Source: Thermofilaceae archaeon
GTDB lineage: Archaea > Thermoproteota > Thermoprotei > Thermofilales > Thermofilaceae
Length of the DNA: 64,000 nt
Reading direction: 5' to 3'
Assembly: GCA_038861545.1 (NCBI GenBank)
Contig: JAWCCZ010000001.1
Coordinates: 384,001-448,000 of the forward strand
Each line of letters opens with the position of its first letter. The first letter of the stretch is position 1. The notes under the pieces are model-generated. The model saw nothing but the letters and a program-made list of their open reading frames with translations. It was not told the DNA's origin and searched no databases. The translations under genes and the position numbers were made by a program. This document shows positions 4,542 to 46,886 of the stretch, piece after piece.

Positions 4542-4577
4542 CGTCGATTCGACTTACTTTGACTATGTGTAGTGCAT

Positions 4578-5618: not shown

Positions 5619-5819
5619 AACCAATCTTCACTGTATAGCACCTTAAATTGACAGCTACTGAGTCTGCAGTAGTTTTAACTATTTAAGGCTTAGATAAGTA
5701 AAGAAAATATAGGCTGTGACTAAACCTCGACAAAAGCAAGGTTGGTACTTCCATCTTCCGGACAGAAAAGTATGAAAAGTGTGGGGAATGCTCAGAGCTA
5801 ATTACCTAGCGCGTAAGCT

Positions 5820-8800
5820 TCAAGCTACTTCGATGAGCTCCCCGCCCCTACCTCGAGATAGCGCCCTAACGCCTGATTCTTTCGCAGCTTTCAGGGCTAA
5901 AGAACTTAGGCTCTTATCGTCAGAATTTATATAAACGATATCCACCTCTTGCAGCTTATCTTTCACCTCGTAGGGAACTTTTTCAAACTGAACCTGGCTA
6001 AGGGATCTAACCTCCAATGCCGCTCGGTAGCCAAGTCTCTTTAAAGACTGGTCAAGAATCTTTTTAAGCCGCTCTGAATCTTCTGGCGTGAACACTAGTA
6101 AGTAACGTGGAGAGAGAAGTGTTACAGCTTCCTTGACTAATTCTTGAGAGGAGCGGATGAAGAGGGCTACACGCCCACTTCTAGCACTCCACTGCAAGGC
6201 TAGCTCGCGTACGAGAGAAGCCACATCTCTTAAGCATTGATTTGCAAAAGATGTGAAAATCGTCACTACTCTCGAATGAAGTTCGACTGTATAGTACTTG
6301 TCGGTTTTCTTCACGGCGATGGTGTTGTAGGATTTAAAGGCCCTTCCTTCAACTTGAGCATACTCGAAGTAAACTTTATAGTTTCTACCTTGCTCGAAAC
6401 TTTCCTCAAAAACTTCAACATTAAAAACGCTGACTTTATGCGCCCGCATCTCTTCAAGCCTTGAAGCGACAAACTTAGTGAAGGATTCAGCTTCTTGGGA
6501 ATCCCTAATAACAACCGGTATAGTTGTTACTAGTTCAACCGCTCTTTCTGCATCCTCTCTTCCAACTACTTCACTCTCAGGAGTCCATCTCCGCTTTAAA
6601 GAGGGGACAGCCAGTAGCACGGCTCTCATAGCCGGCTGTAAAGAGCCGAAGATCGATATAACTATAGAGGCGAGCACGGAAAATACCGCAGATGGAAGAT
6701 CCACTTTAGCGTCGACGGGCACCTGCAAATTAAATACATGAAACATGCGGAAAACCGCTAAACCCAACATGTATCCGGTAACGCCGCCTGCAAAGCCTAC
6801 AATGCAAGCACCGGTTATAAACAACACCGATAATTGATCTGGAGTAGCGCCAAGCGTTGAAAGCGTGTAGACTTCTCTTCTTAACTCATAGACAAACCCA
6901 ATAAACGACAGGAAAAGCATGAGTAATGCTATCACCGCGGGGACCACCATTTCTCCACCTCGAATTTCCAGCCTCGTACCTGGATAATAGACGCGCACAA
7001 TTTCACCCGGTTCGGATACATACACAGTGTAGCCACCGAGAACGCTTAGGCTTTCAGCAAGTTCATCGCTTTGGAATCGGTCGCTTAACTCAACGTATAC
7101 CTTGTTAGTATTTGCCCCAAGGAGTAGTGAATCCATATAATTCACGACGATTGTGCTTTCTGGAGCGACTTTCGTGGCGCTCATGCCGAATACAACAGTG
7201 GGAATCAGATCTTCACCATCGAGGTCCTTCAGCTGGGAGAACTTTCTACTGTCGAACACTCCCACAATTGTGAACTCCACTCCCTGTATTGATATTACAT
7301 CACCAACGCTTTTCTCCGTGCGCTTGGCAACTAGGTCACTGACTATTACCTTCCCTCTATCGCAGACGTCTTCGACTGCGCCCGCTATTAGCGTGCCTTT
7401 TAGAAGTTCTAAAACCGGAGAACCTCTTGATACTCCTATTATCCCACTTATCGGTACGCCTTGCAGGGTTTCTATCGGATTCATTGGGAAAAGCGCCAAA
7501 GCGTTGGGTGCAACCCAAGTAACTCCTTCTCTACCACTAATGAAACCAAGGCCCAATGGGTTTAAAGGCCCTGCTGGGGAAAGGCCCCTAGCGATCAGAA
7601 AAGTCTTACCAAGGAATTGAGAAACCCATCCGGCTTCTTGGTAACTGAGTGAAGAATAAGCAGCGAACGACGTTAAACATGTAAGGCCCGCTGACACCGC
7701 TGTAACCATCAATAGCATTAAAGTGGCTCTAGCTCTTCTCTTAGAGAAGAAGTTAACCGCGAAGTTGAAAATCGAGGAAGCCAGTCCCTCAAGTGAAGCG
7801 CCACTGGCAGTGCGCACTCCCCTTACAGTTACTACTTTCACTACACCAAGCCCCACTAAGGTAAGGCCTGCCGCTGCCGTGGTTACCGCTGCGGCTTCTG
7901 AACTCACGGTCAGCCCAGGGGTCACGGAGTAAGCAGCTAGGGTTAAAGTCACAACTAGCGCTAGAAAGGCTGTTACTCTTTTCCCTTTTTCACTGAAGAA
8001 TAGGCAAGCCATCAAGAAGCTGGCTATACCGCCGACTACGAGAAGGAAAATCGTGTACCACGGAGAGGGTCCAGTGGCTATTCTAGCTAGACGTTCGGAT
8101 ATCTCCATTAGCAAGGTAAAAGCTAGTTTTTGGTCAATGCTTACCCTTAGTCTATCTCCCTCTTTAAGCTTCAACTGCTCTACTGCTTGCGAGATCAAAA
8201 TGTTAGTGGATCCTAGGTAGTAACCATTTTCCTCTAGTTTTCTGACATTAGCCGTTAAGTTGAGTATAACCCGCTGCAGGTTTTCATTATTAGACGCGAA
8301 TATTCGCTCTGCTATAGTTGCAATACGTAGCGTCTCGTTTAGGCGTGCCGCGACGTGTTCAATAATTGTACCCCGGAATCCATCGATCTCATAATGTACA
8401 GTTAGTTCTACCTCTCTATCTGGGGGTAGTATAATGGAATTAGACATAAAATACAGCTCAGAAGCATAAGCTCCTAAAGCTAGCTGCTCCTTTGGGGAGA
8501 GGATCCTAAACATACTGTTTTCGAGAATAGGGGTATAGTTAGTTTCAACCGTGAAAATTGGAAGCTCTCCACTTAAAGAGGGGAGCGTCTCTAGAATTAC
8601 TCTGCCACCATACTCAACAGGCCATTCAATCACGAGCCCTTGCGCTAAGGAGTTTTCGTCAAGAGATAGCACGTAAGGGACAAAGTTGACTTCTCTTGAA
8701 AATGGCCCTAAAACCGCGAAGCTCTTAAAACCGGAAGGTAAACTTATTTCTGCTTGAGCCCCTTTCACTTCTACAACCAGGAGCAATGGTACTTCCACGG

Positions 8801-9092
8801 TGAACTGCCGCCGCCCCGGGAATCTTGGAAACATTGTCCTCGTAACAGTTACATTTATAGCGAAAAACCCCTCTACAGGTTTAGTGAAAAGGATTTTAAT
8901 AGTCTGTTTAGAAGTATCAAGCTCTAAATTCTGAGTAGTGAAATTACCAGGGGAAGAATATAACTGAATATTGGGAGTTGCGTAGGCAAAGCTATCTGAG
9001 GTTAAATAATGTGAAACATTAGCTAAGAGAGCTGGTTGAAAAGATAGCACGACGATCAGCAGCAGGGCCTTCAATAGCCGGAAACTTAGCAT
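5820..9092 (-). CDS. Large MacB/FtsX-like permease-domain membrane protein with extra C-terminal Rossmann (CARF-like) domain
   Basis: Signal peptide and ectodomain, then a TM cluster, KRRARATLMLL (MacB TM1), an extracytoplasmic domain, and the FtsX signature VYELRREVYTLSTLGATPDQLSVLF followed by a cytoplasmic tail. Confidence 0.8.
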   Translation of the reverse strand: MLSFRLLKALLLIVVLSFQPALLANVSHYLTSDSFAYATPNIQLYSSPGNFTTQNLELDTSKQTIKILFTKPVEGFFAINVTVTRTMFPRFPGRRQFTVEVPLLLVVEVKGAQAEISLPSGFKSFAVLGPFSREVNFVPYVLSLDENSLAQGLVIEWPVEYGGRVILETLPSLSGELPIFTVETNYTPILENSMFRILSPKEQLALGAYASELYFMSNSIILPPDREVELTVHYEIDGFRGTIIEHVAARLNETLRIATIAERIFASNNENLQRVILNLTANVRKLEENGYYLGSTNILISQAVEQLKLKEGDRLRVSIDQKLAFTLLMEISERLARIATGPSPWYTIFLLVVGGIASFLMACLFFSEKGKRVTAFLALVVTLTLAAYSVTPGLTVSSEAAAVTTAAAGLTLVGLGVVKVVTVRGVRTASGASLEGLASSIFNFAVNFFSKRRARATLMLLMVTAVSAGLTCLTSFAAYSSLSYQEAGWVSQFLGKTFLIARGLSPAGPLNPLGLGFISGREGVTWVAPNALALFPMNPIETLQGVPISGIIGVSRGSPVLELLKGTLIAGAVEDVCDRGKVIVSDLVAKRTEKSVGDVISIQGVEFTIVGVFDSRKFSQLKDLDGEDLIPTVVFGMSATKVAPESTIVVNYMDSLLLGANTNKVYVELSDRFQSDELAESLSVLGGYTVYVSEPGEIVRVYYPGTRLEIRGGEMVVPAVIALLMLFLSFIGFVYELRREVYTLSTLGATPDQLSVLFITGACIVGFAGGVTGYMLGLAVFRMFHVFNLQVPVDAKVDLPSAVFSVLASIVISIFGSLQPAMRAVLLAVPSLKRRWTPESEVVGREDAERAVELVTTIPVVIRDSQEAESFTKFVASRLEEMRAHKVSVFNVEVFEESFEQGRNYKVYFEYAQVEGRAFKSYNTIAVKKTDKYYTVELHSRVVTIFTSFANQCLRDVASLVRELALQWSARSGRVALFIRSSQELVKEAVTLLSPRYLLVFTPEDSERLKKILDQSLKRLGYRAALEVRSLSQVQFEKVPYEVKDKLQEVDIVYINSDDKSLSSLALKAAKESGVRALSRGRGGELIEVA

Positions 9093-9179
9093 GCTAAGCT
9101 ACCCGAATCTCATTCTGAGAGAATCCTAATTAAGTTTTCTGTTATACTTAATTATCTTTGTATATTGTTTACTTATTAA

Positions 9180-10250: not shown

Positions 10251-10394
10251 GGAAAGCCCTATGTTAATCAAGTTATTCTCGCTGATATATTTTGCCTTTT
10301 AGAATCAGAAGGGAAATAGTAGTAAGGTTCCAGCTCATTTAAATACTAAATGCGACTTGATATTTTATAAAAATAAAAATTATTAAATTTTTAT

Positions 10395-11876
10395 TTACTT
10401 TCTCCGACGTCTAAGCATCAGTAGAATTACCACGGCTATTACGGCAACCACACCTATTGACGCGTACATAGTTATAGGCACACCTTTTTCCATTAGTTCT
10501 GGTACCTCGGGATAGCTTGCCTCGATGTCCAGGGTTTCTATCAAGTAGCTGCCCCACTTATTCCAACCGATTCCTGGAGCCACTACCTGTATAATTAGGT
10601 AGTTGGCTCCCTTTACGGTGTGAACACCGCTACCTAAAATCACGAATTGATCCCGTGCAAGTCTTCTTTCCTCTCCATCGATGGTAGCTGTCTGATCTGC
10701 GGGCGAGAATACTATTGCTGTAGAAGGTGTGAAAAAGCGAACCTCCTGCCCAGGTCGCGAACCTATGAACGTGATACCATCGCCTATAAAGTCCTCAGTT
10801 ACTTCTCCACCGTATGTCTGCGCTGCGAGCACGGTTATATCCCCTGTGCTTTCTATTATCATGTCGAACCTGCCGATACCTAAAGGTAGGAACCAGTAAG
10901 CTTTCTGGGCTACATCTGTATCTGTAAATGAGTGCTCATTCATTACGCTAAGGTCGCTCGCCTTGTATACAGTAACCTTGCCCGCTTCTAAAGGCACGAC
11001 AACAAGAGCAGCGCTTCTACCGGTTTGCTGGTACGTTGCATGGTTGGGGAAGAAGAAAAGTTTGCCAACGTAGCCTCCAGTAATAGAAGGTACGTAAACG
11101 AACATCCCTAAAGCGGCGCTACATACTAACACGTCCCCTGTAGTTGTAAGCTCGAAGACGGAATCGTATCCCGCTGCAGCGCTAATACCGCCTTGCACCA
11201 CTCTGGATTGTATAATTGCGCGGGCGGTTCCCCTAGGGTCAACGGAACCGCTGGTTTCGAATTTGCCTACCCTATCTTTTAAACGCCATTCACTTTTTCC
11301 CAACGCTAAGAGGTAGAAGTTATGATGAACTAAATCCATAGAGTAACCGTACTGGTGAGTTGCTGGAGCCGGCATGAAAATGTAATGAGTGCCCCTAAAC
11401 CCCCCGTTTATGCTCGGATAAAACGTAGCTACTCCGGAAAACGGGTCGTCTTCGTAAGCGGCACTACCGCCGGTCAGTAATACGCCGACTCGCTTGTTTG
11501 AGACAACCTTGAAGTATATACCATACGACACGTAGAAAGTTGCCTTATCGAGCGCGTTAATCCGCGTGGAGTTTATCAGTAGCCCTGAAGTTATATCATA
11601 TATCTCTACCCTGGTATCGTCCTGATAAGCGACTATATCAAGGAGTGCATACCCGCCTGGAGGCGTGAAGTTAATTGCTTTCCCCCAAACTAGTTCAGCT
11701 AAGCTTGGCAGGTCGGTTGACGGAGGCACATAGCCGTAGTAAACATGCTGGTTAGCTTGAGCCGCGACTCTTTGAATAGGGGCTAGAAATGCTGGGAGAG
11801 AGGCTAGCATTAGAACTATAACCAGTAACTCCCTAGTAAGAAATCTTCTAAGTGAAAAAGCATTAAAAAATTTCAT
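10395..11876 (-). CDS. Secreted, C-terminally anchored beta-rich surface protein (IgGFc-binding-like)
   Basis: Likely start is ATG 11876 (MKFFNAF), followed by a signal peptide. DIVAYQDDTRVEIY and KVVSNKRVGVL resemble IgGFc-binding N-terminal repeats. The protein ends in a TM helix plus RRRRK. Confidence 0.7.
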   Translation of the reverse strand: MKFFNAFSLRRFLTRELLVIVLMLASLPAFLAPIQRVAAQANQHVYYGYVPPSTDLPSLAELVWGKAINFTPPGGYALLDIVAYQDDTRVEIYDITSGLLINSTRINALDKATFYVSYGIYFKVVSNKRVGVLLTGGSAAYEDDPFSGVATFYPSINGGFRGTHYIFMPAPATHQYGYSMDLVHHNFYLLALGKSEWRLKDRVGKFETSGSVDPRGTARAIIQSRVVQGGISAAAGYDSVFELTTTGDVLVCSAALGMFVYVPSITGGYVGKLFFFPNHATYQQTGRSAALVVVPLEAGKVTVYKASDLSVMNEHSFTDTDVAQKAYWFLPLGIGRFDMIIESTGDITVLAAQTYGGEVTEDFIGDGITFIGSRPGQEVRFFTPSTAIVFSPADQTATIDGEERRLARDQFVILGSGVHTVKGANYLIIQVVAPGIGWNKWGSYLIETLDIEASYPEVPELMEKGVPITMYASIGVVAVIAVVILLMLRRRRK

Positions 11877-11893
11877 ATTTTTATCCACCGCCC

Positions 11894-13903: not shown

Positions 13904-13919
13904 GCATTTTCAACGAAGC

Positions 13920-14020
13920 TTAATTTAAATTTTACGCATAGGTTTAAAAAGGGTATGAAATAGGCGAATCTTATTTATCTTTCTGTTGATTAGTATAAAA
14001 AGAGGAGAGAAAGCTTTAAA
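13920..14020. promoter_or_regulatory. Divergent archaeal promoter region with two TATA boxes
   Basis: ATTTAAAT at 13923-13930 lies about 25 nt upstream of minus-strand ATG 13900. A purine-rich stretch plus TTTAAA at 14015-14020 lies 26 nt upstream of ATG 14046. Confidence 0.6.
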
Positions 14021-14045
14021 GCGTATCCAGTTGTCGAGTGCTTGC

Positions 14046-17000
14046 ATGAACCTTAGAGTTAGCGGTAGGGAAAAGAAATCAATTCTAAGTGAAACCCTCG
14101 TACCTGCGGCACTAATGCTATTACTTACAGCTACTCCGATTCTAAATCCTCTAACCGCGGCTCAACCCACGCTAACTCCTACCCCTCACGGATTTGAGAA
14201 AATAATAGTTCATTTTAACAAGAGTTTATTTATTGAAGATGTTCAAGCTCTTTCGAAAAGCTCTAGGTTTACAGGCTATCCGGGTTTCTTTGAAGCGGCT
14301 AACTATATCGCAGATGTTTTTAAGGGAGCTGGTATTGCGCCATTAGGTAAAGATTACTTTGAATGGTTTGAGGTGACCGTACCTATTACGGGAGATTCCT
14401 GGATATCTGTAGAGGACGGCTTGAAGGTAGCCGTATACCCGCTGTACCCCAACCTTGTGAATCCGAGCCCATATAGAAGCGACGATTGGGATTACCTAGT
14501 TTATGTAGGGAAAGGCGAGCTTGAAGACTTTAACGGGAAAAATGTCTCAGGGAAATTCGTGTTAATGAATTTCGCCTGCGGGTGGAACTACTACTATGCA
14601 TTAATGCTCGGCGCTAAGGGAGTGGTTTTTGTGCCGGAATCGTCAGACGCTGTTACCAGACCAGAAGCCGACCAAAAGCTGACTCTTGTTCCAGTATATT
14701 TCCCCAAGCTGTACATGCCGCTTGAAAGAGAAGGGATTCAGCTGCTCGAGTTGGCGAAAAAAGCTGGTGATACTGGTATTAAGGTAAAAATCTTTTCTCA
14801 GATGCGGTGGGACTCAGTAAAGGTACCGAATGTCGTCGGTTTTATTAAGGGGAAAAATCCAGCAAAATCCAATAAAGTTGTTGTTATAGCGAGTTACTAT
14901 GACTCTTACTCGGTTGTCCCCTCGCTTTCCTTTGGTGCTGAGGATGCTTTAGGGATAGCTACTCTGTTACAATTTGCCAGGTTCCTAGCTGAAAACCCGC
15001 CAGAATACTCAGTGGCTTTAGTAGCTTTAGCCGGTCATTACCAAGCTCTCTGGGGAGCGAGAGAATTTGTAGAACGCCGTTTCGACGATGGGAGGGAGTA
15101 TGTTGCATTCGCCTCCATAGATTTGTCGAGCGAATCCGATCAGGTCGGAATTTATGTCCTCGGCTCGGCCTACTCTTATAGATACGCTGATATTCTAGTC
15201 AGGCGGTACACTTGGCTGGTCAGCAGAGCTTTTGGTCCTTGGTTAGCCGAAATACGGATGTTACTGGGAAGTAAATTTGGAGAAAACTTTGTCGATGGAG
15301 TTTTAGCAAGCTATCCCGGCTATATAAGGTCAGTACCAATGTACGAACCATACCGTTACGGGTTCTTACCTTCTTCTGCAGTCTTCCCATCCCATAATTG
15401 GTATCTTGCATCTCAAGTATACCTTTTCGATTCAGAACCCTTTACATTAGCAATGTACGGTGGAGGCTTCACATTTAGAACCACTAACGCCTTTAAAACT
15501 CGCCGCTGGACTCCCGCCGACAGGCTGGATTATGTGAATTTTGAAAATGTGTGGCCACAGGCTTACTTTATCCACTGCATACTTTGGGCAATGTTAAATG
15601 AAGATATCAACCTGCCAACTTCAAAGGAGAGGCTTCGCGACGATTGGGGGTACGTGACGTTGCGAGTCAAAGTTACAACCTATAACATGCTTACATCGTA
15701 CTGGGATACTATTAATTTTACGGAAAAACCAGAGTTGAAGGGTAAGCTTATAGCTTATGTAACTAGTGGTGGGCTCAGAATAGCCCAGAAAGTCAGCGAT
15801 GATGGTACAGTTACAATACACGGCTTAAAACCATACGCCGGAGGTGGAGTTGACATTTTCGCTATTGAGGATAACGGAAAGATTACTTGGACCACGGATG
15901 TCGGTGTATGGCAAGCTCCGGGATGGAAGGGTATACCTTTAACTACTCATCCTCATGAGAAGTTAATAGCGATCTTCGAGTGCGCTAGTATATTCATACC
16001 TTTCGTCTTCCAACCGACAGATTTTAGGACTCTATCCCTTACCTCGATCAATGATGCTAGGGCACACAGTCCTATGATTCGGCAGAACAGTTTGCAGACC
16101 GACATGTTCGCTATGGCGTTTGTTCAGCCAGGTGTTCCAGCCGAAGTAACTTTCACCATAGGGACTGGATTACCAAGCATAGTTCTGAATAATGCTTCGC
16201 CAGCAAAACCTGAGGGGTTCGGTTATACTTTGAACAAAGGCGAGCAAATTGTTTTAACCCCATTAGATGCTTTCAAAAACCTTTATACAATTGTTGACAA
16301 CAGGTACAATAATATAAAGAGCAGAAATGTTATAATACCTACAATTGAATTTTACGCTAACGCAACCCTCAAGCTGAAGAGCGAATTCGAGAAAATGCTC
16401 GAAGAGAGAAACTACTCCAAAGCTTTTGGTGCATGCCTCTTCGCCTGGGCCGCGCTTATCAACTGGTATAACACTGTTATGAGCGCAATAGGGCAAGTAA
16501 TTACATCGATTGCAGTTTTCTTCCTTATTTCATTACTATTCGCGCTCTTGTTTGAGCGGCTTGCTTTTAAGGCAGAGGGTAGCCGGAGACTATTCACCCT
16601 GCTACTTATCTTAGTGGTTGCAAATGCCGTACTTTATACACTTCACCCCGCCTACCACATAGCTACCAACTGGACAATCGTGCTACTTACAGTCACTTTC
16701 CTAGCATTTAACATCATCATGCTTTATATAGCTATCATGAATGCTTATTCAGCAGCTAAAATAATTCGAGAATCTAGAGTTGGTAAACACTTTGTTGAAG
16801 TCAGTCGAAGCGGATTAATGGTTGAAAGCATGACTCTTGCGATCGAAAACATAAAGAAAAGGAAACTGAGGACAATCTTAATCTTGGTTGCAACGACCGC
16901 GATCACGTTCGCTATGATTTCGCTCGCGTCGGTAACTTCTTCACCTGTAATGCTTCCTCAAGGTGTAAATACAACTCGGATGCCGGACTTTGAAGGTTTA

Positions 17001-18521
17001 CTAATTAGGGCCTACCCATGGGATCAATTGAACTTCCTTACCTACGAAATGTATAACAATTACCTAGAAGGTAAATGTTACATAGCCCCTAGAGCATTCT
17101 TATACCCTCCACCCTTACTGGTGGCTATGCCGGGTGTAACTACCGGGCTTCTCTACTTAGGTTTCAGCCCACAGCTAAAAACGCAGATCTACGGTATGCT
17201 TGTTTTATCTCCTAATGAAGTTAACGTATCCGGGTTAGATAGGTTAATAGTTAGGGGTAGGTGGTTTAGCGAGGGCGATGTATATGCCGTGATACTCACG
17301 GAGTCGGTTTCATCCAGCTTAAGCCAAGAGCTGGGTAGACCGATCGACGCGGGGTCAACCATAAAATTATGGGGTCTAGAGCTTCGGGTAGTCGGCATAA
17401 TCAGTGACCGCGTTGCAAACTTTACAAACCCGGACGGTGAACCAGTAACTCCCATAGACCCTCAATCCCCCGTAGCAACTCCTCTCCACTTATCCGCAAG
17501 GAATATAATGGTAATCCCGTATTCGCTGTACAGGCTAATAGCTGTACCTCCAACAGTTACCAATATCGCCGTAAAACCTCTCAATGAACGGCAGTTAATC
17601 GAGTTGAAGGGTTTACTTCCTTCAATAGTATCCTACCCGATTTACTTACACTGGGGCGGGGAACTGAGAGCTTGGGTTATGAGGCAGTGGGTTAGTGCGA
17701 TAGGTTTCGAGTTTATAATAATTCCAGCCATTTTAGCAGCTGCATCCATACTGGACTTAATGCTCGCCTCTGTTTACGAGCGGAGAAGGGAGTTGTATGT
17801 TTTCACGGCCGTCGGCATGGCGCCATCTCATGTCACAACCGTTTTCTTAACTGAAGCATTAACCTACGTAGTACCAGCAGTATTCTTTGGATACGTAACA
17901 GGAATTCTAGCTACTAATGCTATGTTAGCTGTGGGTGCATTTCCAAGCGGGCTTTACCCCAACTTTACTTCGTTAGCGATACTAGTTGTTGTAGGTCTCT
18001 GCACTTTACTTGTCGTAGTTGCAGCTTACTATCCGTCAACCTTAGCCAGCAGGCTTGCTATTCCATCTCATGTGAGAAGGTGGTTATCCGCTGAGAAAGG
18101 CCCTGCAGGGGATGAGTGGAGGATAACGTACCCATTAATCCTTTCTTCGGCGGGAGAAGTCTACGGCTTTATGAATTTCTTAAGTGAGTACATGAGGGCT
18201 CTTGAGTTGAGAGAGAGCGCCTTCTTCGCGGAAAAAATAGAAATATCTGAAGAGGAGAAGGGTGGAGACCACGTTATCCGGTTGCACGCGCACTGCAGAT
18301 TTGCGCCCTATGATCTGGGTATAAGGAGTGACATATTAATCACAGCCATCAGGAAGAAGGATGCAAGCAATTACGTCTTTGACGCTCTAATCAAGCGTGT
18401 GGAGGGCTACTGGCAGGCTTGGAGGGGCACAGCACTTACAGTCGCGGGTGATCTTCGGAAGGAGATAATAGCATGGAGGGCTTTAAGCCCTGAAGAAAGG
18501 AAGAAGTACACGCCCAGATAG
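14046..18521 (+). CDS. Giant membrane protein: PA/M28 peptidase-like ectodomain fused to MacB/FtsX permease domain
   Basis: SRFTGYPG..AANYI, PA-type LVYVGKGELEDFNGKNVSGKFVLM, NVVGFIKG..VVIASYYDS and GAEDALGIATLL, followed by KRKLRTILIL and VYERRRELYVFTAVGMAPSHV. ATG 14046 is preferred to TTG 13986 from TATA spacing. Confidence 0.85.
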   Translation: MNLRVSGREKKSILSETLVPAALMLLLTATPILNPLTAAQPTLTPTPHGFEKIIVHFNKSLFIEDVQALSKSSRFTGYPGFFEAANYIADVFKGAGIAPLGKDYFEWFEVTVPITGDSWISVEDGLKVAVYPLYPNLVNPSPYRSDDWDYLVYVGKGELEDFNGKNVSGKFVLMNFACGWNYYYALMLGAKGVVFVPESSDAVTRPEADQKLTLVPVYFPKLYMPLEREGIQLLELAKKAGDTGIKVKIFSQMRWDSVKVPNVVGFIKGKNPAKSNKVVVIASYYDSYSVVPSLSFGAEDALGIATLLQFARFLAENPPEYSVALVALAGHYQALWGAREFVERRFDDGREYVAFASIDLSSESDQVGIYVLGSAYSYRYADILVRRYTWLVSRAFGPWLAEIRMLLGSKFGENFVDGVLASYPGYIRSVPMYEPYRYGFLPSSAVFPSHNWYLASQVYLFDSEPFTLAMYGGGFTFRTTNAFKTRRWTPADRLDYVNFENVWPQAYFIHCILWAMLNEDINLPTSKERLRDDWGYVTLRVKVTTYNMLTSYWDTINFTEKPELKGKLIAYVTSGGLRIAQKVSDDGTVTIHGLKPYAGGGVDIFAIEDNGKITWTTDVGVWQAPGWKGIPLTTHPHEKLIAIFECASIFIPFVFQPTDFRTLSLTSINDARAHSPMIRQNSLQTDMFAMAFVQPGVPAEVTFTIGTGLPSIVLNNASPAKPEGFGYTLNKGEQIVLTPLDAFKNLYTIVDNRYNNIKSRNVIIPTIEFYANATLKLKSEFEKMLEERNYSKAFGACLFAWAALINWYNTVMSAIGQVITSIAVFFLISLLFALLFERLAFKAEGSRRLFTLLLILVVANAVLYTLHPAYHIATNWTIVLLTVTFLAFNIIMLYIAIMNAYSAAKIIRESRVGKHFVEVSRSGLMVESMTLAIENIKKRKLRTILILVATTAITFAMISLASVTSSPVMLPQGVNTTRMPDFEGLLIRAYPWDQLNFLTYEMYNNYLEGKCYIAPRAFLYPPPLLVAMPGVTTGLLYLGFSPQLKTQIYGMLVLSPNEVNVSGLDRLIVRGRWFSEGDVYAVILTESVSSSLSQELGRPIDAGSTIKLWGLELRVVGIISDRVANFTNPDGEPVTPIDPQSPVATPLHLSARNIMVIPYSLYRLIAVPPTVTNIAVKPLNERQLIELKGLLPSIVSYPIYLHWGGELRAWVMRQWVSAIGFEFIIIPAILAAASILDLMLASVYERRRELYVFTAVGMAPSHVTTVFLTEALTYVVPAVFFGYVTGILATNAMLAVGAFPSGLYPNFTSLAILVVVGLCTLLVVVAAYYPSTLASRLAIPSHVRRWLSAEKGPAGDEWRITYPLILSSAGEVYGFMNFLSEYMRALELRESAFFAEKIEISEEEKGGDHVIRLHAHCRFAPYDLGIRSDILITAIRKKDASNYVFDALIKRVEGYWQAWRGTALTVAGDLRKEIIAWRALSPEERKKYTPR

Positions 18522-18523
18522 GG

Positions 18524-20476
18524 GTGAATCATATGGGAAGTCCGTTGGTTACAGCTCAGAGTAAGGCTTTAACCAGTAAGGTCGTTTTAATGTTCCTGTT
18601 CTCTGCACTTGTACTACAGCCTCTCGTAGTTTACTACTACCTGTTGACTAACAGCTACTACGCTTTCTCGTACTGGATAACCGTACTTTTATTTGCGGAA
18701 ATTGCCAGCTTAGCTAGAGCTGACTTCACCAGCAGGGAACTGTATCTCGTTCTTACGTTTCAGCCTGTCGCTTTTGCCTATTCTCTGTTTTTCATCAACT
18801 TTATTAGGAACATGTACTTCGCTTACAGTGAACCTTCCAAATACTTCGGGATCGCCCAGCACGTGCCTAGCTGGTGGGTCCCTCCAGAAAACGTGGTACA
18901 ATCCATTTACCTGTCTAAACTACTTTTCTTCGAACCAGCATGGGCACTACCGATAGGGTTATCACTTGCCTTCCTAGCGTTGACTGTGTTAACTGATGTT
19001 TCGCTAGGTTACTTAAGTTACACCATATTCGTAGTCGAAGAGAAGCTCGAGTTCCCATTTGCTCGAGCCTCTGTAGCTATGGTTGAAACCCTAGCGTCTA
19101 GAGATCCGAACTATTTAAGGACTCTATTCGCATCCTGCATTATAGGCATACTACTCAACATAGGCTTAAAGTTCCTACCCTACATAATGTCAGTATTTAT
19201 GTTAGGAGGAGTGTTCGTCGCTGTCGGAACTCCTTTCTACGGTTACGACTTTACCCCCTACCTCGATTACATACTACCCGGCGCCGGGTTTGTTTTAGTA
19301 ACAGATCCCTTAGCTTTTGTAAGCGGTTTCCTTATTCCCCCAGCAGTGGCTGTGGTTCAGTTCCTAGCATCATTTCTCCTCTACTTCGTTGGAACTCACA
19401 TGATAACTCGCTTTAAACTTTGGCCTGAAGAAAGCCTATGGACAACAGGCTGGGGGTATTGGACGCTACAGTACAGATCTATGATATACTTCTACGTATC
19501 GTTTTTCATCGGGCTAAGCTTAGCCGCCATGTTAATCCCCCTGGCTGTTAACCCAACTCCTCTAAAGCGGGCATTTAAAGCGCTTGGCAAAGCTGGGGGG
19601 AAAGGCTTCTCAGCTAAGATGTTACTAGGGGTTTTCTTCGTTTCATCTATCTCGATGACCATGCTATCCTGGGCGTTAACCGACTTCTCCTTCCCAGTGT
19701 ATATTTTACTTTTATTAATAGTCGGCGGGACTTTCTTTGCAACTTATATAGCAACGGCATCCGCAGGTGTTACTGTTTTCGGTACAAATGTCCCATACTT
19801 AAGAGAGTTGTCGATATACTTCTCCGGCTACCAAGGCAAGGAGATATGGTTCGTCCCGCTTCCAGCCACCCTTTCCAGTGCTCCTGTGGGAACGATCGGC
19901 GTGACCCTAGCTTCTCCCTTGGGGGGGTCATCAGTTGCACAAGCCTTGCTTCAAGCTGATGTACTGGGAGTTGAGCATAGGGAGTTTTTCAAAGCTTATG
20001 CGATACTGGTGTTGGTAAGCATAGTCAGCGGCTTTTTCTTGACTAACTTGTTCTGGTACATTTCGCCTATACCCTCAAGTGCTTACCCATATACAATAAC
20101 AGGATGGCCTGTTGACGCGTTGAGCTGGGCTAGGATGATGGTCTGGGTGTGGAGTGGTTACCTTTTCAGACCTATCTGGATCGCTGCGGGCTTCGCTGTG
20201 GGAACTGCCTTGTACGCAGCAGCCAATTTCGTTCTGCGAGCACCGTATCTCCTGATAGTGGCGATAACGGGAGCTGGTATGGGTATACCATGGGCTTTCT
20301 CGCAGATGATAGGTTCCATTATTGGAAGGCGAGCCTTAAGGTCGGCGTTGGGAGAAAACTGGGGCAGGTACTTGTATTTGTTAGTCACCGGCATTTTCCT
20401 CGGAGATGCCATCATGGAAACGATGAGGATACTGTTGATAGTGCTGGCTAGATCACAATGGCTACTGCCGTTCTAA
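18524..20476 (+). CDS. OPT-superfamily-like multipass membrane protein
   Basis: About 16 TM segments; FVVEEKLEFPFARAS motif shared with OPT-like proteins and with the 11894 gene; starts 2 nt after the FtsX gene. Confidence 0.75.
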   Translation: MNHMGSPLVTAQSKALTSKVVLMFLFSALVLQPLVVYYYLLTNSYYAFSYWITVLLFAEIASLARADFTSRELYLVLTFQPVAFAYSLFFINFIRNMYFAYSEPSKYFGIAQHVPSWWVPPENVVQSIYLSKLLFFEPAWALPIGLSLAFLALTVLTDVSLGYLSYTIFVVEEKLEFPFARASVAMVETLASRDPNYLRTLFASCIIGILLNIGLKFLPYIMSVFMLGGVFVAVGTPFYGYDFTPYLDYILPGAGFVLVTDPLAFVSGFLIPPAVAVVQFLASFLLYFVGTHMITRFKLWPEESLWTTGWGYWTLQYRSMIYFYVSFFIGLSLAAMLIPLAVNPTPLKRAFKALGKAGGKGFSAKMLLGVFFVSSISMTMLSWALTDFSFPVYILLLLIVGGTFFATYIATASAGVTVFGTNVPYLRELSIYFSGYQGKEIWFVPLPATLSSAPVGTIGVTLASPLGGSSVAQALLQADVLGVEHREFFKAYAILVLVSIVSGFFLTNLFWYISPIPSSAYPYTITGWPVDALSWARMMVWVWSGYLFRPIWIAAGFAVGTALYAAANFVLRAPYLLIVAITGAGMGIPWAFSQMIGSIIGRRALRSALGENWGRYLYLLVTGIFLGDAIMETMRILLIVLARSQWLLPF

Positions 20477-20492
20477 AGATAGGTAAGGCGAA

Positions 20493-22889
20493 ATGCCCAG
20501 CGGGCAGATCAGCAAGAGTACATGGAATCGCAATGACAAATCATTACTGTCTAACAGGAAGTTTATAACGGTTTTAACCTTATTTTCTATAACTGCTCTA
20601 TCCCTCTTTTCGGTTAGAACAGTAGCCGTCGGTGGCGAGATAGCTGGTTGGGATCACTCCTTTCACTACACTAATGCATACCTGATATACTACTTCTTCT
20701 TGCCAGATGGTAGCCCGCTGGGTTATGATCCTTGGCACATGTTAGGCTGGAGCCCGAACCTCTACTACAATTTAGGGACTTCGCTTTTCGTCACGTTATC
20801 CTACAGCTTTCTATCACCACTGTTGGATATGAAATCAGTCTACAGCCTATGCGTCGCGCTCAGTTACGCGCTTCTAGCTCCAGCGACGTTTATTCTAGTG
20901 TACGCAATGACCGGGTCGTACACCACCGGCCTCATAGCTGCTCTCATCAGCGTTGCAGTCTTCGACGAAGAAGATTCATGGATATCGGCAGGGTGGAGGC
21001 AGGTTCACTATATAGCTATGTGGCCCCAACGGTGGGGGATCGTTACAGGTATCTCAGCCCTAGGTTTGTTTATACTCGCTTTACGCTATAAGCGAGCCGG
21101 TGTGTGGGAATTTCTCCTGGCCTCCTTAGCTGCTCTCCTGCTAGCTTGGGCGACTCTTTCGCACGTTGTAATGGGTGCGGCCACCCTTATCCTAATGTTA
21201 GTGGCCGCTGTTTTCAAGCTAGCCGAGGACATAATAGTTAGAGGAAAGAGGGAAGCATTAAACCATATTTACTTGCTGTTATTCACAATTATGCTTTCCT
21301 TTGGTTTAATGGCATTCTGGGCTGTTCCGTTACTGGAGACCAACCAAGAGTTTCACGGGTTGTATACGCTTACATGGGAGCTCGGAGTTGGAGTTATAGG
21401 TACGATAACTTCCTCCTACCCATTCTATTTTAACTTACTTGTACCATTAGGGCCAGCTCTTTCTCTTTTTAAACAGCGGGAGAAAAAAGCATCAATCTGG
21501 GCTTTGTACGCAGGTTGGCTTTTATTCACACTTACAGTTCTCTTCGCGTCAAGGGTAATACCCGGCAACATGATAGGTTCGCTCAGCATCTACACTATGC
21601 TTTTAGCCCTAGCTCTTTATTTGAAAACCCGAGGCGGTTTAGCCCATATTTTACTTCCTACATCGGCTACTCTGCTGCTGTGGTTGGCTACTGGACCTAG
21701 CACATACGTGGTTAACCTCTTAGGCTTACCGCTAGACCTGAGAAAGCTCCCACTCGTAGAATGGTTGGGTTACGGTAAGTTCGCAGGTTACGCCAGGTAT
21801 ATTTTCTTAGCTTACTACTCAGTTACGGTCTCCAGCTTAGCATCTTGGGCGGTGGATCACTTGAAAAGTGAGAGCGACTCTAGAACCCCCGAGTTGCGAA
21901 CGGTGGCGCTCCTCCTTCTTTCTCTTATCGTGGCAGGGTTTCTAGGACCAGTTTTACAGAGTTTCCCTAAAAACACCGATTTACTGGGTTCTTCTGAAAG
22001 TAAAAAGTTCTGGCTCATCGAAGAATTTCCGCTTTACCAGAACGTAAGTCTGTTCGTAAACTCGCTCAGCTTGCTAGGGATCGAGGATAACACGTACTTG
22101 CTTGTCCAGGATCTAAGCGACAACTTCGCCGACTGGAGCACTTTCTGTCACAACCATTTCGTATACGAGTTCCCGTTGTACATCGGGAAACCAGTAATCG
22201 GCGGGATTGTTTGGACAAGGTACGTCACCCAGCCTATCTCAACTACCGAATACTCTAGGATGTTTTCAATGGATAATGCCTACTGGGCTGAAAATATCGA
22301 GATATTTTATTCGCAGCTGAAAGAACTCGGCATCTCCTATGTTGCCGTGTTTGATTCACGATTAAAAGATTCCTTGAAAAAAAGCGATCTCTTTGAAGAA
22401 GTCCTCTCAATCCCCCCTTACACGCTGTTTAGAACTAGAGAGTTCAACCAAATAGTAACCATCAACTCGTCCAGTGCACGTATTGAGAACGTTGTTATTC
22501 GACCAAACCTTATCCGCTTTACGATTAGAGCTAAGCCGATGGAGGTTTACCGAGTTAAAATAAAGTTGGTAGCTTTCCCTCGCTGGGTTGTAACAACGCA
22601 GCCGGAGGCTTTTTTCCTCAAGATCTTGACGTACAACCCCTGCATAGTTGAGGAAACCTCTCGAGCGTGGGGGTATCCAGTCGGTTCGAAAATACCATTC
22701 TTCGACCTGTTGATAGTTCCAGCGTCAGAAGCTACGACAGTTGAATTGAGGTACAATCCACACACCATCGGCGACTGGATTACGACCCTAGCGCTACTTG
22801 TAGTAAGTGCAGCTGTAATTACCTTTTTGGCGTCGCGGCCAGTATTCTTTAAACTTTTCATTAGAAGGCTCTCCAAACAGCAGTACTAA
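20493..22889 (+). CDS. GT-C-fold-like membrane protein (6-pyruvoyl-tetrahydropterin synthase-related / YfhO-like)
   Basis: GWDHSFHY and PWHMLGWSPNLYYNLG in the first external loop; about 13 TMs, a soluble external domain and a terminal TM, as in GT-C glycosyltransferases. Confidence 0.6.
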   Translation: MPSGQISKSTWNRNDKSLLSNRKFITVLTLFSITALSLFSVRTVAVGGEIAGWDHSFHYTNAYLIYYFFLPDGSPLGYDPWHMLGWSPNLYYNLGTSLFVTLSYSFLSPLLDMKSVYSLCVALSYALLAPATFILVYAMTGSYTTGLIAALISVAVFDEEDSWISAGWRQVHYIAMWPQRWGIVTGISALGLFILALRYKRAGVWEFLLASLAALLLAWATLSHVVMGAATLILMLVAAVFKLAEDIIVRGKREALNHIYLLLFTIMLSFGLMAFWAVPLLETNQEFHGLYTLTWELGVGVIGTITSSYPFYFNLLVPLGPALSLFKQREKKASIWALYAGWLLFTLTVLFASRVIPGNMIGSLSIYTMLLALALYLKTRGGLAHILLPTSATLLLWLATGPSTYVVNLLGLPLDLRKLPLVEWLGYGKFAGYARYIFLAYYSVTVSSLASWAVDHLKSESDSRTPELRTVALLLLSLIVAGFLGPVLQSFPKNTDLLGSSESKKFWLIEEFPLYQNVSLFVNSLSLLGIEDNTYLLVQDLSDNFADWSTFCHNHFVYEFPLYIGKPVIGGIVWTRYVTQPISTTEYSRMFSMDNAYWAENIEIFYSQLKELGISYVAVFDSRLKDSLKKSDLFEEVLSIPPYTLFRTREFNQIVTINSSSARIENVVIRPNLIRFTIRAKPMEVYRVKIKLVAFPRWVVTTQPEAFFLKILTYNPCIVEETSRAWGYPVGSKIPFFDLLIVPASEATTVELRYNPHTIGDWITTLALLVVSAAVITFLASRPVFFKLFIRRLSKQQY

Positions 22890-25338: not shown

Positions 25339-25441
25339 TGTAAGTTACAACATTTTTTAAAGTTTTCTCACATATCATGGTATGCTCCACCCCATGCGCG
25401 CCTAGAAGTCGTAAACATTTTACAATGCCTAGTAACTTACT
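25339..25441. promoter_or_regulatory. Cluster of GTAA-n-TTAC palindromes, candidate operator
   Basis: TGTAAGTTACA 25339-25349, GTAAACATTTTAC 25411-25423 and AGTAACTTACT 25431-25441, all upstream of the RHH gene. Confidence 0.4.
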
Positions 25442-42847: not shown

Positions 42848-42994
42848 CAGTATCTTCTCGATGATAGGTTTAACTGCAATATATTTTTGATGCACTCTTG
42901 GTTCGCAATTAACGACTAGGCTAGGTAGCGGAGACATAAACCCCGGTGAAATCCATAAATGCCGTAAATTCTTAGTTGAAAAAAGGTCCTCGCG

Positions 42995-45829: not shown

Positions 45830-45833
45830 CCTA

Positions 45834-46853: not shown

Positions 46854-46886
46854 CCACCAGGAAAAAAGGTTAAAGATAAGAGGGGG

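Follow-up and report, generated by a model that had tools for sequence, protein, structure and literature searches.

The type VII ABC (MacB) superfamily includes MacB, LolCDE, FtsEX, HrtBA, YbbAP, YtrEF, and BceAB, which have the FtsX Pfam domain in common and possess four membrane helices, the first two of which (TM1 and TM2) are separated by a large extracytoplasmic domain. FtsEX acts on EnvC, an inactive LytM protein. OPT/Yellow-Stripe-like transporters (PF03169), exemplified by barley Yellow Stripe 1 (HvYS1), belong to a family of secondary carriers whose characterized members are importers. The PA-domain M28 aminopeptidases have an inactive relative in the transferrin receptor. In Bacteroidota, polysaccharide utilization loci (PULs) encode a surface receptor and transporter pair (SusC/SusD) in many divergent copies per genome.

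Here, we describe a locus from a 64,000-nucleotide stretch of Thermofilaceae archaeon DNA (the window), whose giant FtsX protein shares with the type VII ABC superfamily the FtsX domain, the four-helix layout, and a co-occurring LolD-like ATPase family. Unlike these systems, the giant FtsX has no ATPase gene in cis, three extra N-terminal membrane helices, and a cytoplasmic tail domain of 140–260 residues, is tied by conserved gene linkage to two OPT-fold permeases, and reaches as many as 11 copies in a genome of 1.6 Mb, for which there is a candidate common motor. It also differs in the 800-residue pseudo-M28/PA ectodomain fused ahead of the FtsX module, which has the PA + M28 domain order of the aminopeptidases (2ek8) but is joined to a membrane permease. 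The two permeases resemble OPT/Yellow-Stripe carriers in fold, whereas in their genomic setting they differ in always being paired divergent paralogs beside an FtsX protein. The likeness to PULs lies in the many divergent copies and in some glycoside hydrolases near the locus, but there is no homology to SusC/SusD, no outer membrane, and the energy coupling is different. A literature search found no paper on such a module, in agreement with the original prediction that it had not been characterized.

Gene content and expression of the locus

An ORF check recovered all seven genes of the original prediction, with exact gaps of 2 and 16 nt in the right arm, and its domain calls were upheld in Pfam searches (Table 1); the 650-, 798-, and 563-aa proteins are without any Pfam match. 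Of the glycoside hydrolase genes named as neighbors, those for GH106 and GH3 border the locus, whereas the GH78 gene is located 30 kb away (52312-54945); a second GH3 gene also lies at a distance in the window.

Table 1. Features of the locus and of candidate ATPase genes elsewhere in the genome. Positions are those of the window unless a contig is given.
Feature	Position	Strand	Length and remarks
GH106	924-3896		flanks locus
FtsX1090 gene	5820-9092	-	1090 aa
URO-D-family gene	9180-10271	-	363 aa
Ectoprotein gene, longest ORF	10395-12086	-	563 aa
Ectoprotein gene from internal Met	10395..11876	-	about 493 aa
DUF6785/DUF6784 gene	11894-13903	-	669 aa; OPT-fold permease A of triad
Divergent intergenic region	13904..14045	.	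AT-rich, TATA-like boxes (sequence read directly)
Giant FtsX gene	13986-18521	+	1511 aa from TTG; 1491 aa from ATG at 14046
PA + M28-like ectodomain of giant FtsX	14232..15140	+	remodeled metal site, predicted pseudo-peptidase
3-helix membrane bundle + MacB-type module of giant FtsX	16443..18056	+	
C-terminal cytoplasmic alpha/beta domain of giant FtsX	18105..18518	+	about 140 aa
650-aa protein gene	18524-20476	+	OPT-fold permease B of triad
798-aa polytopic protein gene	20493-22889	+	GT-C-like (lead)
GH3	25437-27713		flanks locus
Third large FtsX gene	28737-31562	-	941 aa; Pfam FtsX 3.7e-14; just beyond the originally predicted locus
Orphan LolD-type ATPase	G000:C5:60848-61594		
Second LolD-type ATPase	G000:C3:20764-21492		beside 238-aa ectodomain-less FtsX

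In a metatranscriptome, 83 strand-consistent reads map to the ectoprotein and DUF6785 genes (minus strand), which are co-expressed, and to the giant FtsX gene (plus strand), with the switch of strand at the intergenic region. There are almost no reads on the 650- and 798-aa genes, the few being of the wrong strand, and none on the FtsX1090 gene.

The FtsX1090 protein matches FtsX (3.8e-11) and MacB_PCD (1.5e-6) in Pfam and represents a separate subfamily, with a longer cytoplasmic tail and without the M28 domain. Its alignment to the giant FtsX is confined to the 3TM-FtsX core (22 per cent over 608 columns, E = 1e-14), and its closest paralog is a 714-aa protein at G000:C1:255369. In the 363-aa protein, the URO-D match (3.4e-21) covers only the C-terminal half, and BLASTP detected eight further URO-D-like ORFs in the genome. 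The 798-aa protein, of which no paralog was found in the genome, has structural look-alikes in the PTPS_related, YfhO, and DUF6541 clusters of the atlas (TM 0.68–0.71); its designation as GT-C-like is retained as a lead drawn solely from these look-alikes.

The translated ectoprotein has a signal peptide, a beta-rich body, and a C-terminal anchor. It probably starts at the internal Met, which gives it a length similar to that of its 478–496-aa homologs, and it is probably a beta-propeller, as a profile built from nine sequences gives a weak match to designed 8-bladed propellers (6g6o, E = 1.6e-5). Its homologs adjoin the module at five loci (L001, L039, L040, L043, and, in five copies, L045), and this C-anchored protein is a frequent accessory of the module.

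The giant FtsX protein and its OPT-fold partners

The giant FtsX gene probably starts at the ATG. Its 1511-aa translation matches FtsX (3.5e-11) and Peptidase_M28 (1.4e-10) in Pfam, with MacB_PCD narrowly below the cut-off (24.3 vs 27 bits), and five full-length paralogs with 25–31 per cent identity are encoded in the genome. In a phmmer search, the PA-M28 ectodomain retrieved the aminopeptidase 2ek8 as its top match (E = 4.4e-8, about 300 residues). However, all 24 family members have GH[YW]Q or GYYE in place of the catalytic and metal-ligand Glu-Glu pair, and 13 of them lack the first His ligand (His in 11, Tyr in 12, Ser in 1). Because the Glu-Glu pair is missing throughout, the M28 domain is, judging from its sequence, not a working aminopeptidase.

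The ectodomain is followed by the extra 3-helix bundle and by a C-terminal permease module of the MacB/LolC type, which consists of TM1, an extracytoplasmic core domain, and TM2-4. An AF2 model of this membrane part (pLDDT 81.6) has as its best Foldseek matches the MacB structure 5lil (E = 6.8e-12) and 9rlc (2.5e-11), and LolCDE, 5xu1, YtrEF, HrtBA, YbbAP, and BceAB follow 5lil among 49 matches with E ≤ 1e-3. Past TM2, an ER-x-REI stretch is near-invariant among 22 sequences, at a position that in MacB is the NBD-coupling helix region. The C-terminal cytoplasmic domain is modeled as four long strands and two helices, and it has neither a Pfam match nor a Walker A motif; the sole lead is 3tfz (ZhuI, helix-grip fold), at rank 50 in Foldseek (E = 1.8e-3).

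The 669-aa protein matches DUF6784 (3.2e-14) and DUF6785 (2.1e-10) in Pfam, whereas the 650-aa protein has no Pfam match, and hence none to OPT, even at E ≤ 10; only one of the 24 members of its family matches Pfam OPT (8.6e-9). Nevertheless, Foldseek on an AF2 model of the 650-aa protein (pLDDT 85.1, pTM 0.84) retrieved only HvYS1 (7wst/7wsr; E = 1e-7 and 1e-6, TM 0.65–0.71, 13 per cent identity), the next match being already at E = 0.16. In an hhalign comparison, the 669-aa protein and the 650-aa family align over 618 columns (probability 99.9, E = 4.9e-32), with the V-x-x-E-x-L-x-F-P motif that had been noticed in both proteins in register. Its conserved E-x-L-x-F-P part resembles the OPT signature L-x-[FY]-P-S-G. 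The two proteins are full-length homologs with a Yellow-Stripe/OPT fold, which bears out their description as OPT-like.

A triad conserved across Thermoproteota

The locus had been interpreted as two symmetric arms, each with one FtsX and one OPT gene. The genetic link between giant FtsX and OPT-fold genes is indeed conserved, but the unit is not the arm: conservation delineates a triad of the DUF6785, giant FtsX, and 650-aa genes that spans the divergent promoter. The giant FtsX gene and a homolog of the 650-aa gene are adjacent at all six places in the 1.63-Mb genome, and a DUF6785 gene adjoins the giant FtsX gene at four of them. Because the copies on contigs C6 and C2 carry the three genes on one strand, in the order DUF6785-FtsX-650, the divergent layout in the window represents an operon that has been rearranged locally. 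In total, the genome contains 11 large FtsX ORFs, including the third one in the window.

The 650-aa family is present in 64 of 401 Thermoproteota genomes, and in 28 of 30 loci from these genomes a giant FtsX gene lies within 1.5 kb of the family gene. At 20 wider foreign loci, the cluster includes a giant FtsX gene in 17 cases and the 20-kb stretch a DUF6785 gene in 18. The linkage survives rearrangements of order and strand and extends over many Thermoproteota families, including records titled Bathyarchaeia and Brockarchaeota. An exception is genome G098, whose sole 1581-aa giant FtsX is encoded 700 kb from its sole 650-aa match. A search for FtsX-OPT fusion proteins found none, which is a weak negative.

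The FtsX1090, URO-D, and GT-C-like genes, in contrast, which had been counted as parts of the system, are jointly syntenic only in a single further genus of the archaeon's family (locus L039). Individually, the GT-C-like gene is syntenic in L039 only, the URO-D gene is found in the module stretch of L039 and L053 only, and in genus g77 (L047 and L050) the OPT-like pair has relatives of the FtsX1090 subtype at a distance of two genes. We infer that these three genes are lineage-specific passengers or accessories.

A candidate motor in trans and the possible function of the module

As originally reported, there is no ATPase in cis: no ORF of at least 100 aa in positions 1-36700 of the window has a Walker A motif, and the closest ABC_tran genes are Opp-type (42995-45086). 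The absence of an ATPase is probably not, however, a property of the machine. The genome encodes three LolD/MacB-type ATPases, one of which is an orphan of the kind that the original prediction had suggested searching for, and the orphan's family retains all ABC motifs. By a hand tally of the 401 genomes, 81 have both the ATPase and the large FtsX family, 4 have only FtsX, 4 have only the ATPase, and 312 have neither, where the thresholds (high identity and E ≤ 1e-94 for the ATPase, E ≤ 1e-30 for large FtsX; 85 genomes each) were set after the bimodal score distributions had been seen and the counts include related genomes. The genomes with large FtsX only (G384, G320, G249, and G157) are 70–94 per cent complete; those with the ATPase only are G394, G079, G199, and G240. 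Within family f1, genera g1, g3, and g4 have both, whereas six near-complete g2 genomes have neither, and families f14 and f37 contain similar contrasts.

Matches to the small, ectodomain-less FtsX (E ≤ 1e-28) were obtained in 76 genomes, every one of which belongs to the union of the ATPase and large-FtsX genomes, and in at least 12 of them its gene is directly next to a LolD-type match. In genera g55 (two genomes) and g77 (six genomes), where every genome has a single 650-aa match, the genes for the small FtsX, the LolD ATPase(s), a large FtsX, and the OPT-like pair lie within 12–18 kb. Because of this clustering and the near-perfect co-occurrence, the view of an ATPase-less machine is probably wrong, and a motor common to the copies probably acts in trans, from genes at other places in the genome. 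A complex prediction for the FtsX module and the orphan ATPase gave weak support, with a score of 0.41 against 0.00 for the best control, although such a textbook-like pair may succeed through memorization by the predictor. Against a motor in trans, the small FtsX and its adjacent ATPase might make up a transporter of their own, and the conserved neighbor of the orphan ATPase, which at 6 of the 15 loci inspected is the housekeeping ATPase RLI, says nothing about membranes.

The original prediction had envisaged an analog of a PUL that imports glycans. In a truly ATPase-less complex of this kind, FtsX would be a passive scaffold or anchor for the large receptor ectodomain, and proton-coupled OPT-fold carriers would be responsible for all transport. 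We regard this as unlikely. It agrees with the lack of an ATPase gene both inside the locus and up to 20 kb away, with the lack of a LolD-type ATPase in the 20-kb stretch of 16 of the 20 foreign loci, and with the established nature of OPT proteins as secondary carriers, but it is at odds with the co-occurrence of both the LolD-type ATPase and the small FtsX with large FtsX, with the motor genes clustered in g55 and g77, with the conserved ER-x-REI stretch, and with the fact that all solved structural neighbors of the FtsX module work with an ATPase. As for glycans, the GH106 and GH3 genes flank the locus, with GH78 and the second GH3 further off, and some neighbors of other copies are sugar-related. 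Yet the 107 neighbor proteins (20 of 24 module loci) include no constant enzyme or regulator partner, neither a glycoside hydrolase nor any other family, and have only a mild flavor of sugar metabolism (three GFO/IDH/MocA, three xylose-isomerase-like TIM, two TrmB, and one GH38).

It is rather unlikely, too, that the module maintains the envelope or exports, by ATP-driven extraction, handover, or activation of cell-surface material (for example, the C-anchored propeller proteins, lipid-linked glycans, or parts of the S-layer), with export or flipping by the OPT-fold proteins and with the GT-C-like enzyme acting on the outer face. All characterized structural neighbors (MacB, LolCDE, FtsEX-type systems, HrtBA, and BceAB) do operate in the outward direction or inside the envelope, and no importer is among them; the pseudo-enzyme head also recalls the action of FtsEX on EnvC; the recurrent ectoproteins and the GT-C-like gene that follows after 16 nt, with synteny in L039, also fit. 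However, among 26 module loci examined, the GT-C-like gene is present in 2 (the window and L039) and ectoproteins in 6, the characterized OPT-family members are importers, and six to eleven divergent paralogs per small genome would better fit substrate diversity. That the genes are mere neighbors with unrelated functions is very improbable: there is no positive evidence for it, even though the FtsX1090, URO-D, and GT-C-like genes lack conserved linkage to the triad beyond one family, and for the triad itself it is contradicted by its six places in the genome and its conservation in many families despite rearrangements.

The explanation that we prefer, and to which we give a little better than an even chance as a whole, is a conserved module of a giant FtsX with a pseudo-peptidase head and two paralogous OPT-fold permeases, in which transport is coupled to the ectodomain and powered in trans. 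The conserved pair of LolD-type ATPases, the orphan and the one on contig C3, would drive the module, probably together with the 238-aa FtsX, and would serve all 11 large FtsX proteins of the genome as one common motor. Powered by ATP, the FtsX module would pass its movement on to the ectodomain by mechanotransmission, as in MacB, LolCDE, and FtsEX, so that the ectodomain may bind or release an extracellular ligand, which the OPT-fold pair would carry across the membrane, with import of oligomers as the most likely direction.

Conserved module of a giant FtsX protein and two permeases

All seven ORFs of the original prediction are present, with gaps of 2 and 16 nt in the right arm, and Pfam supports its calls of FtsX (1090 and 1511 aa), Peptidase_M28 (1511 aa) and URO-D (363 aa). 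The genome (1.63 Mb in 12 contigs, 92 per cent complete; the window is C1:384001-448000) contains 13 FtsX-domain matches, of which 11 are in ORFs of 714–1540 aa, and only two of its FtsX-domain genes adjoin an ABC ATPase. The giant FtsX protein has five full-length paralogues among the genome's own ORFs (BLASTP). At six of six copies, a paralogue of the 650-aa permease is encoded directly beside the giant FtsX, and a DUF6785 protein gene adjoins four of the six. On contigs C6 and C2, the order is DUF6785–FtsX–650, with all genes on one strand. In one of the four, the DUF6785 gene carries a single in-frame TGA that divides it into ORFs of 173 and 490 aa and could reflect a pseudogene, a sequencing error or a recoded stop.

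The 650-aa family was found in 64 of 401 Thermoproteota genomes and 26 of 161 genera. A giant FtsX gene lies within the 1.5-kb flanks of 28 of 30 loci (the window being one of the 30), and the two misses share one family. Among 20 wider stretches from other genomes, the cluster includes a giant FtsX in 17, and a DUF6785 protein is present in 18 of the stretches, with varying order and strand; these stretches are not independent, as the same genus or genome is represented in L041/L042, L047/L050, L048/L049, L054/L055 and L045/L057. From the adjacencies within the genome, in the 401-genome loci and in the foreign stretches, we infer that selection acts on the triad spanning the divergent promoter (the two permeases and the giant FtsX), to which the ectoprotein is often added as an accessory. 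The whole arrangement of the window is repeated only in L039, a locus from another genus of the same family (FtsX1090, URO-D, ectoprotein and DUF6785 on one side; giant FtsX, 650-aa and 798-aa proteins on the other). Two symmetric arms, each with its own FtsX/OPT pair, had been proposed originally; we rejected this arrangement, from which the pattern conserved among the paralogues and in the foreign stretches differs.

In genus g77 (L047, L050), the FtsX encoded two genes from the OPT-like pair is 1057–1072 aa long and belongs to the FtsX1090/714 subtype rather than to the giants; this subtype may also serve such pairs. One genome, G372, has three copies of the module within 40 kb (L045, G372:C6:66000-85900, and L057, G372:C6:86000-105900), the first of them surrounded by five paralogous genes for C-anchored ectoproteins.

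Features of the window and related genes elsewhere in the genome (positions are those of the window unless a contig is named)
Feature	Position	Strand	Remark
Region with possible gene remnant	4542-5819		1.3 kb
89-aa ORF	5219-5488		
FtsX1090, 1090 aa	5820-9092	-	second large FtsX, other subfamily
URO-D protein, 363 aa	9180-10271	-	
Ectoprotein ORF, 563 aa	10395-12086	-	
DUF6785/DUF6784 permease, 669 aa	11894-13903	-	
Giant FtsX, 1511 aa	13986-18521	+	
650-aa permease	18524-20476	+	
798-aa protein	20493-22889	+	GT-C-like
322-aa protein	27738-28706	-	without known family; comes after 941-aa FtsX
Third large FtsX, 941 aa	28737-31562	-	6 kb right of locus
Opp-type ABC importer region	40773-48521	-	SBP_bac_5, two permeases, two ATPases
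Opp-type genes, ABC ATPases nearest to locus	42995-45086		
ADP-ribosylglycohydrolase-family gene	60927-62234		intact
DUF6785 gene with in-frame TGA	C1:247455-249563		L003 11456-13564
LolD/MacB-type ATPase 1			adjoins ordinary 390-aa FtsX
LolD/MacB-type ATPase 2	C3:20764-21492		adjoins 238-aa FtsX with 4-5 helices and no ectodomain
LolD/MacB-type ATPase 3, orphan	C5:60848-61594		71 per cent identity to C3 copy; next to RLI gene
Orphan ATPase with RLI/ABCE1 gene	C5:58607-61594		L074

About 5 per cent of the hot-spring metatranscriptome run X4 yielded 83 reads at 95 per cent identity or higher. The reads are strand-consistent, with depths of 1.2–5.3 on the ectoprotein and DUF6785 genes and 0.24–0.98 on the giant FtsX gene; none fall on the FtsX1090 or URO-D genes and almost none on the genes of the 650- and 798-aa proteins. 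Therefore, the left arm does not form a single transcription unit with FtsX1090. Runs X2 and X3, in which the organism's presence is not established, gave zero reads.

The 563-aa ectoprotein ORF probably starts at an internal Met: the resulting product of about 493 aa has a signal peptide and a C-terminal anchor, and its homologues are 478–496 aa long. These homologues recur in L001, L039, L040, L043 and L045 (five copies), and their profile weakly matches designed beta-propellers. For the 798-aa protein, the Atlas look-alikes are PTPS_related, YfhO and DUF6541 clusters (TM 0.68–0.71 to the Atlas model), and we treat its GT-C-like character as a lead only.

The original prediction likened the locus to a polysaccharide utilization locus, with glycan as the probable polymer given the nearby glycoside hydrolase genes. 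GH106 and GH3 do flank it on either side, and GH78 is 30 kb away. We surveyed 107 neighbouring proteins from 20 of 24 module loci (the near-duplicates L042, L049, L050 and L055 were dropped) and found no constant partner by Pfam, with no family in more than four proteins: ABC_tran in four; xylose-isomerase-like TIM, GFO/IDH/MocA and HAD in three each; URO-D, TrmB and MFS in two each; and GH38 in one. This is a mild sugar-metabolism flavour, with nothing resembling a polysaccharide utilization locus, and the analogy is weakly supported by this context. Close homologues are in records titled Thermofilaceae, Bathyarchaeia, Brockarchaeota and Thermoprotei, and a search for related loci with a closer alignment (A3) returned 14 named records, which are archaeal only.

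Nine URO-D-like ORFs were found in the genome by BLASTP, the window's own included, and several lie within about 5–12 kb of module copies (C6:26114, C2:227733, C7:6127 and the one in the window). The neighbours of the module also include one MTTB-family methyltransferase; together, the URO-D proteins and MTTB hint at methyltransferase-type rather than haem-pathway roles. In L053 (G292:C45:37000-56900), a URO-D-like gene is located between the giant FtsX and DUF6785 genes, and a gene for a 580-aa double-NBD ABC protein is directly upstream of the 650-aa homologue.

Elsewhere in the window, no OPT-like gene adjoins that of the 941-aa FtsX, and the 322-aa protein has three relatives elsewhere in the genome (BLASTP). 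The Opp-type importer genes are followed on the same strand by genes for a transglutaminase-like protein and a 361-aa protein without a family. tRNA and Rfam scans of the window gave no matches. The 1.3-kb region left of FtsX1090 has no ORF longer than 89 aa, and that ORF, in our reading, resembles the C-terminal part of an ADP-ribosylglycohydrolase; the region may be the remnant of a gene.

Predicted architecture of the permeases and the giant FtsX protein

The 669-aa protein scores above the cut-offs of both DUF6784 (53.3 bits; cut-off 26.4) and DUF6785 (40.2 bits; cut-off 25). Neither permease reaches the threshold of the OPT profile (PF03169), and Pfam returns nothing at all for the 650-, 798- and 563-aa proteins, even at E ≤ 10; a Pfam OPT match (8.6e-9) does occur in 1 of 24 members of the 650-aa family. 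Because pairwise BLASTP of the 650- and 669-aa proteins gave only a non-significant E-value of 0.016 over 111 residues, profiles were needed to establish their homology. When alignments of the 650-aa family (A1, 24 sequences) and the DUF6785/6784 family (A2, 19 sequences) were compared in hhalign, they matched end-to-end (probability 99.9; E-value 4.9e-32; 618 columns), and the E-x-L-x-F-P motif originally noticed in both permeases is in register in this comparison. The AlphaFold2 model of the 650-aa protein (pLDDT 85.1, pTM 0.84) has barley Yellow Stripe 1 as its only significant PDB neighbour (7wst and 7wsr; E-values 1.1e-7 and 1.4e-6; TM 0.65–0.71), with the next best match at E 0.16. A protein-atlas lead for the 650-aa protein also points toward the OPT fold. 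Based on these lines of evidence, both permeases are predicted to be divergent, paralogous proteins of the OPT/YSL fold, the 669-aa protein through its hhalign link to the 650-aa family.

The A1 and A2 profiles yielded no relevant match when searched against PDB sequences. Among 1.84 billion proteins, the 650-aa family comprises 748 clusters at 50 per cent identity (E ≤ 1e-3), or 300 at E ≤ 1e-30. None of its best 150 representatives is longer than 700 aa, and no FtsX–OPT fusion was seen among the longer candidates from searches with the 650-aa protein and A2, which is weak evidence.

The FtsX domain (PF02687; cut-off 25.5 bits) is recognized in both the 1090-aa (43.5 bits) and the 1511-aa protein (43.7 bits). 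MacB_PCD is recognized in the former (29.1 bits) and falls below the 27-bit cut-off in the giant (24.3 bits). The two proteins have only the 3TM-FtsX core in common (22 per cent identity over 608 columns).

The N-terminal part of the giant matches the PA-domain M28 aminopeptidase 2ek8 (E-value 4.4e-8). In this alignment, a His is replaced by Tyr and Glu-Glu by His-Tyr, and the last His is outside the aligned region. The Glu-Glu catalytic/ligand pair is absent from all 24 family members examined, which have GH[YW]Q or GYYE instead, and the position of the first His ligand is occupied by His in 11 of them, by Tyr in 12 and by Ser in one. The full M28 set of co-catalytic zinc ligands (His, Asp, Glu, Asp/Glu, His) and catalytic Glu is not retained, and the sequences identify the M28 head as a conserved pseudo-peptidase.

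In the model of the giant's C-terminal 692 residues (pLDDT 81.6), three extra membrane helices precede a MacB-type module with four helices (TM1, a mixed alpha/beta extracytoplasmic domain, and TM2–4), which is followed, on the cytoplasmic side, by an alpha/beta domain about 140 residues long. Foldseek returned 49 matches at E ≤ 1e-3, among them MacB (5lil; E-value 6.8e-12), LolCDE, 5xu1, YtrEF, HrtBA, YbbAP and BceAB, all of which are ATPase-partnered; MacB, LolC/E, HrtB, YtrF and YbbP align over 440–490 columns. An ER-x-REI stretch behind TM2, in the region that we take to be the NBD-coupling helix in MacB, is nearly invariant among 22 giants. The tail domain has no ATPase motifs, and its sole structural lead is the helix-grip protein 3tfz (E-value 1.8e-3).

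A putative motor encoded in trans

The original prediction held that the system has no ATPase. This is correct for the locus, where no cognate ABC ATPase is fused or adjacent and no ORF of at least 100 aa in window positions 1–36700 has a Walker A motif; for the system as a whole it is probably not, since a LolD subfamily is co-distributed with the large FtsX proteins. ABC ATPases occur in 9 of the 20 foreign stretches, inconsistently and in four different kinds. The suggested genome-wide check for an orphan uncovered three LolD/MacB-type ATPases, one of them orphaned; among NCBIfam models they match LolD, MacB, DevA and FtsE best, in each case without reaching the equivalog cut-off. The family of the orphan has kept Walker A, Q-loop, signature, Walker B and H-loop. 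Its gene adjoins RLI/ABCE1 in six of the loci examined, the one in this genome plus L079, L080, L082, L085 and L087, which represent several families.

We searched the 401 genomes with the orphan ATPase and with a profile of the giant's C-terminal part (A4). The best scores are bimodal (ATPase, ≤4e-94 versus ≥3e-84; FtsX, ≤3e-34 versus ≥1e-21). By hand tally, both are present in 81 genomes, only the large FtsX in four (G157, G249, G320, G384), only the ATPase in four (G394, G079, G199, G240) and neither in 312; the thresholds were set after the bimodal scores had been seen and the genomes are related, so these counts do not amount to a probability. The association also holds within families: f1 has both in g1, g3 and g4 and neither in six near-complete g2 genomes; in f14, both are found in g55 only; and in f37, both occur in g77 but not in g91 or g142. 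At E ≤ 1e-28, 76 genomes have the small FtsX, in ORFs of about 200 aa; every one of these genomes belongs to the large-FtsX/ATPase union, and by coordinates the small FtsX ends 19–82 bases from a LolD-type match in at least 12 genomes.

Linked versions occur in two genera, each with one 650-aa match per genome. In g55 (G046, G198), a stretch of about 12–14 kb contains two LolD genes together with the genes for the small and giant FtsX, DUF6785 and the 650-aa protein; in six g77 genomes, a LolD gene, the OPT-like pair and one small and one large FtsX gene share a stretch of about 18 kb. In multi-copy genomes, this one among them, the motor genes are unlinked. A complex predicted between the orphan ATPase and the FtsX module weakly supports their pairing (score 0.41; best control, 0.00), and a pair this similar to complexes of known structure may score from the predictor's memory of them; the runs agree on at least 78 per cent of contacts, with partner pLDDT of at least 79. 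On balance, we favour the view that one motor, encoded in trans and shared among the FtsX proteins, probably drives them with ATP.

Possible mechanism and significance

We regard the module as a type VII ABC system whose partners are unprecedented and whose motor is putatively encoded in trans. Its most likely mechanism would be ATP-driven mechanotransmission from the FtsX module to a ligand-binding pseudo-peptidase head, which would serve a heterodimeric pair of OPT-fold permeases; by inference as to both direction and substrate, the pair would import an extracellular oligomer. The main rival is an outward-acting or envelope-maintenance role, because every characterized type VII system acts in this way. 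To our knowledge, type VII ABC systems are known solely as outward- or envelope-acting machines with their own ATPase, and OPT-family proteins solely as stand-alone secondary carriers; we know of no organism in which a type VII ABC engine is coupled to OPT-fold transport. A more elaborate and tentative scheme, which we consider rather improbable, is a modular hybrid transporter: one shared motor, the small FtsX plus a pair of LolD-type ATPases encoded elsewhere, would dock successively or simultaneously with as many as 11 interchangeable giant FtsX heads, each with its own pseudo-enzyme receptor domain and OPT-fold pair, and ATP-driven mechanotransmission would gate or load the secondary carriers.

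As originally stated, the module appears to be uncharacterized: no publication on it was found, and nothing in the literature found names DUF6785 or DUF6784. New here, besides the expression data, are the count of six copies for a single genome, the joint distribution of three families (large FtsX, small FtsX and the LolD subfamily) across Thermoproteota, and the two archaeal genera in which the module is single-copy and clustered.

A conserved genetic lock that ties OPT-fold proteins to a type VII ABC system would mean an undescribed coupling of ATP-driven extracytoplasmic work to carrier-type transport, and would provide the first functional context for DUF6785/DUF6784 and for a large family of 'hypothetical' proteins. 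A motor shared in trans would be missed by neighbourhood-based annotation, which would explain the orphaned look of these FtsX proteins. The module is present in six copies in a 1.6-Mb genome and extends across uncultured Thermoproteota of hot springs. These organisms are presumed to live on polymers, and the module may therefore be a major, at present invisible, component of how they acquire nutrients or of their envelope biology.
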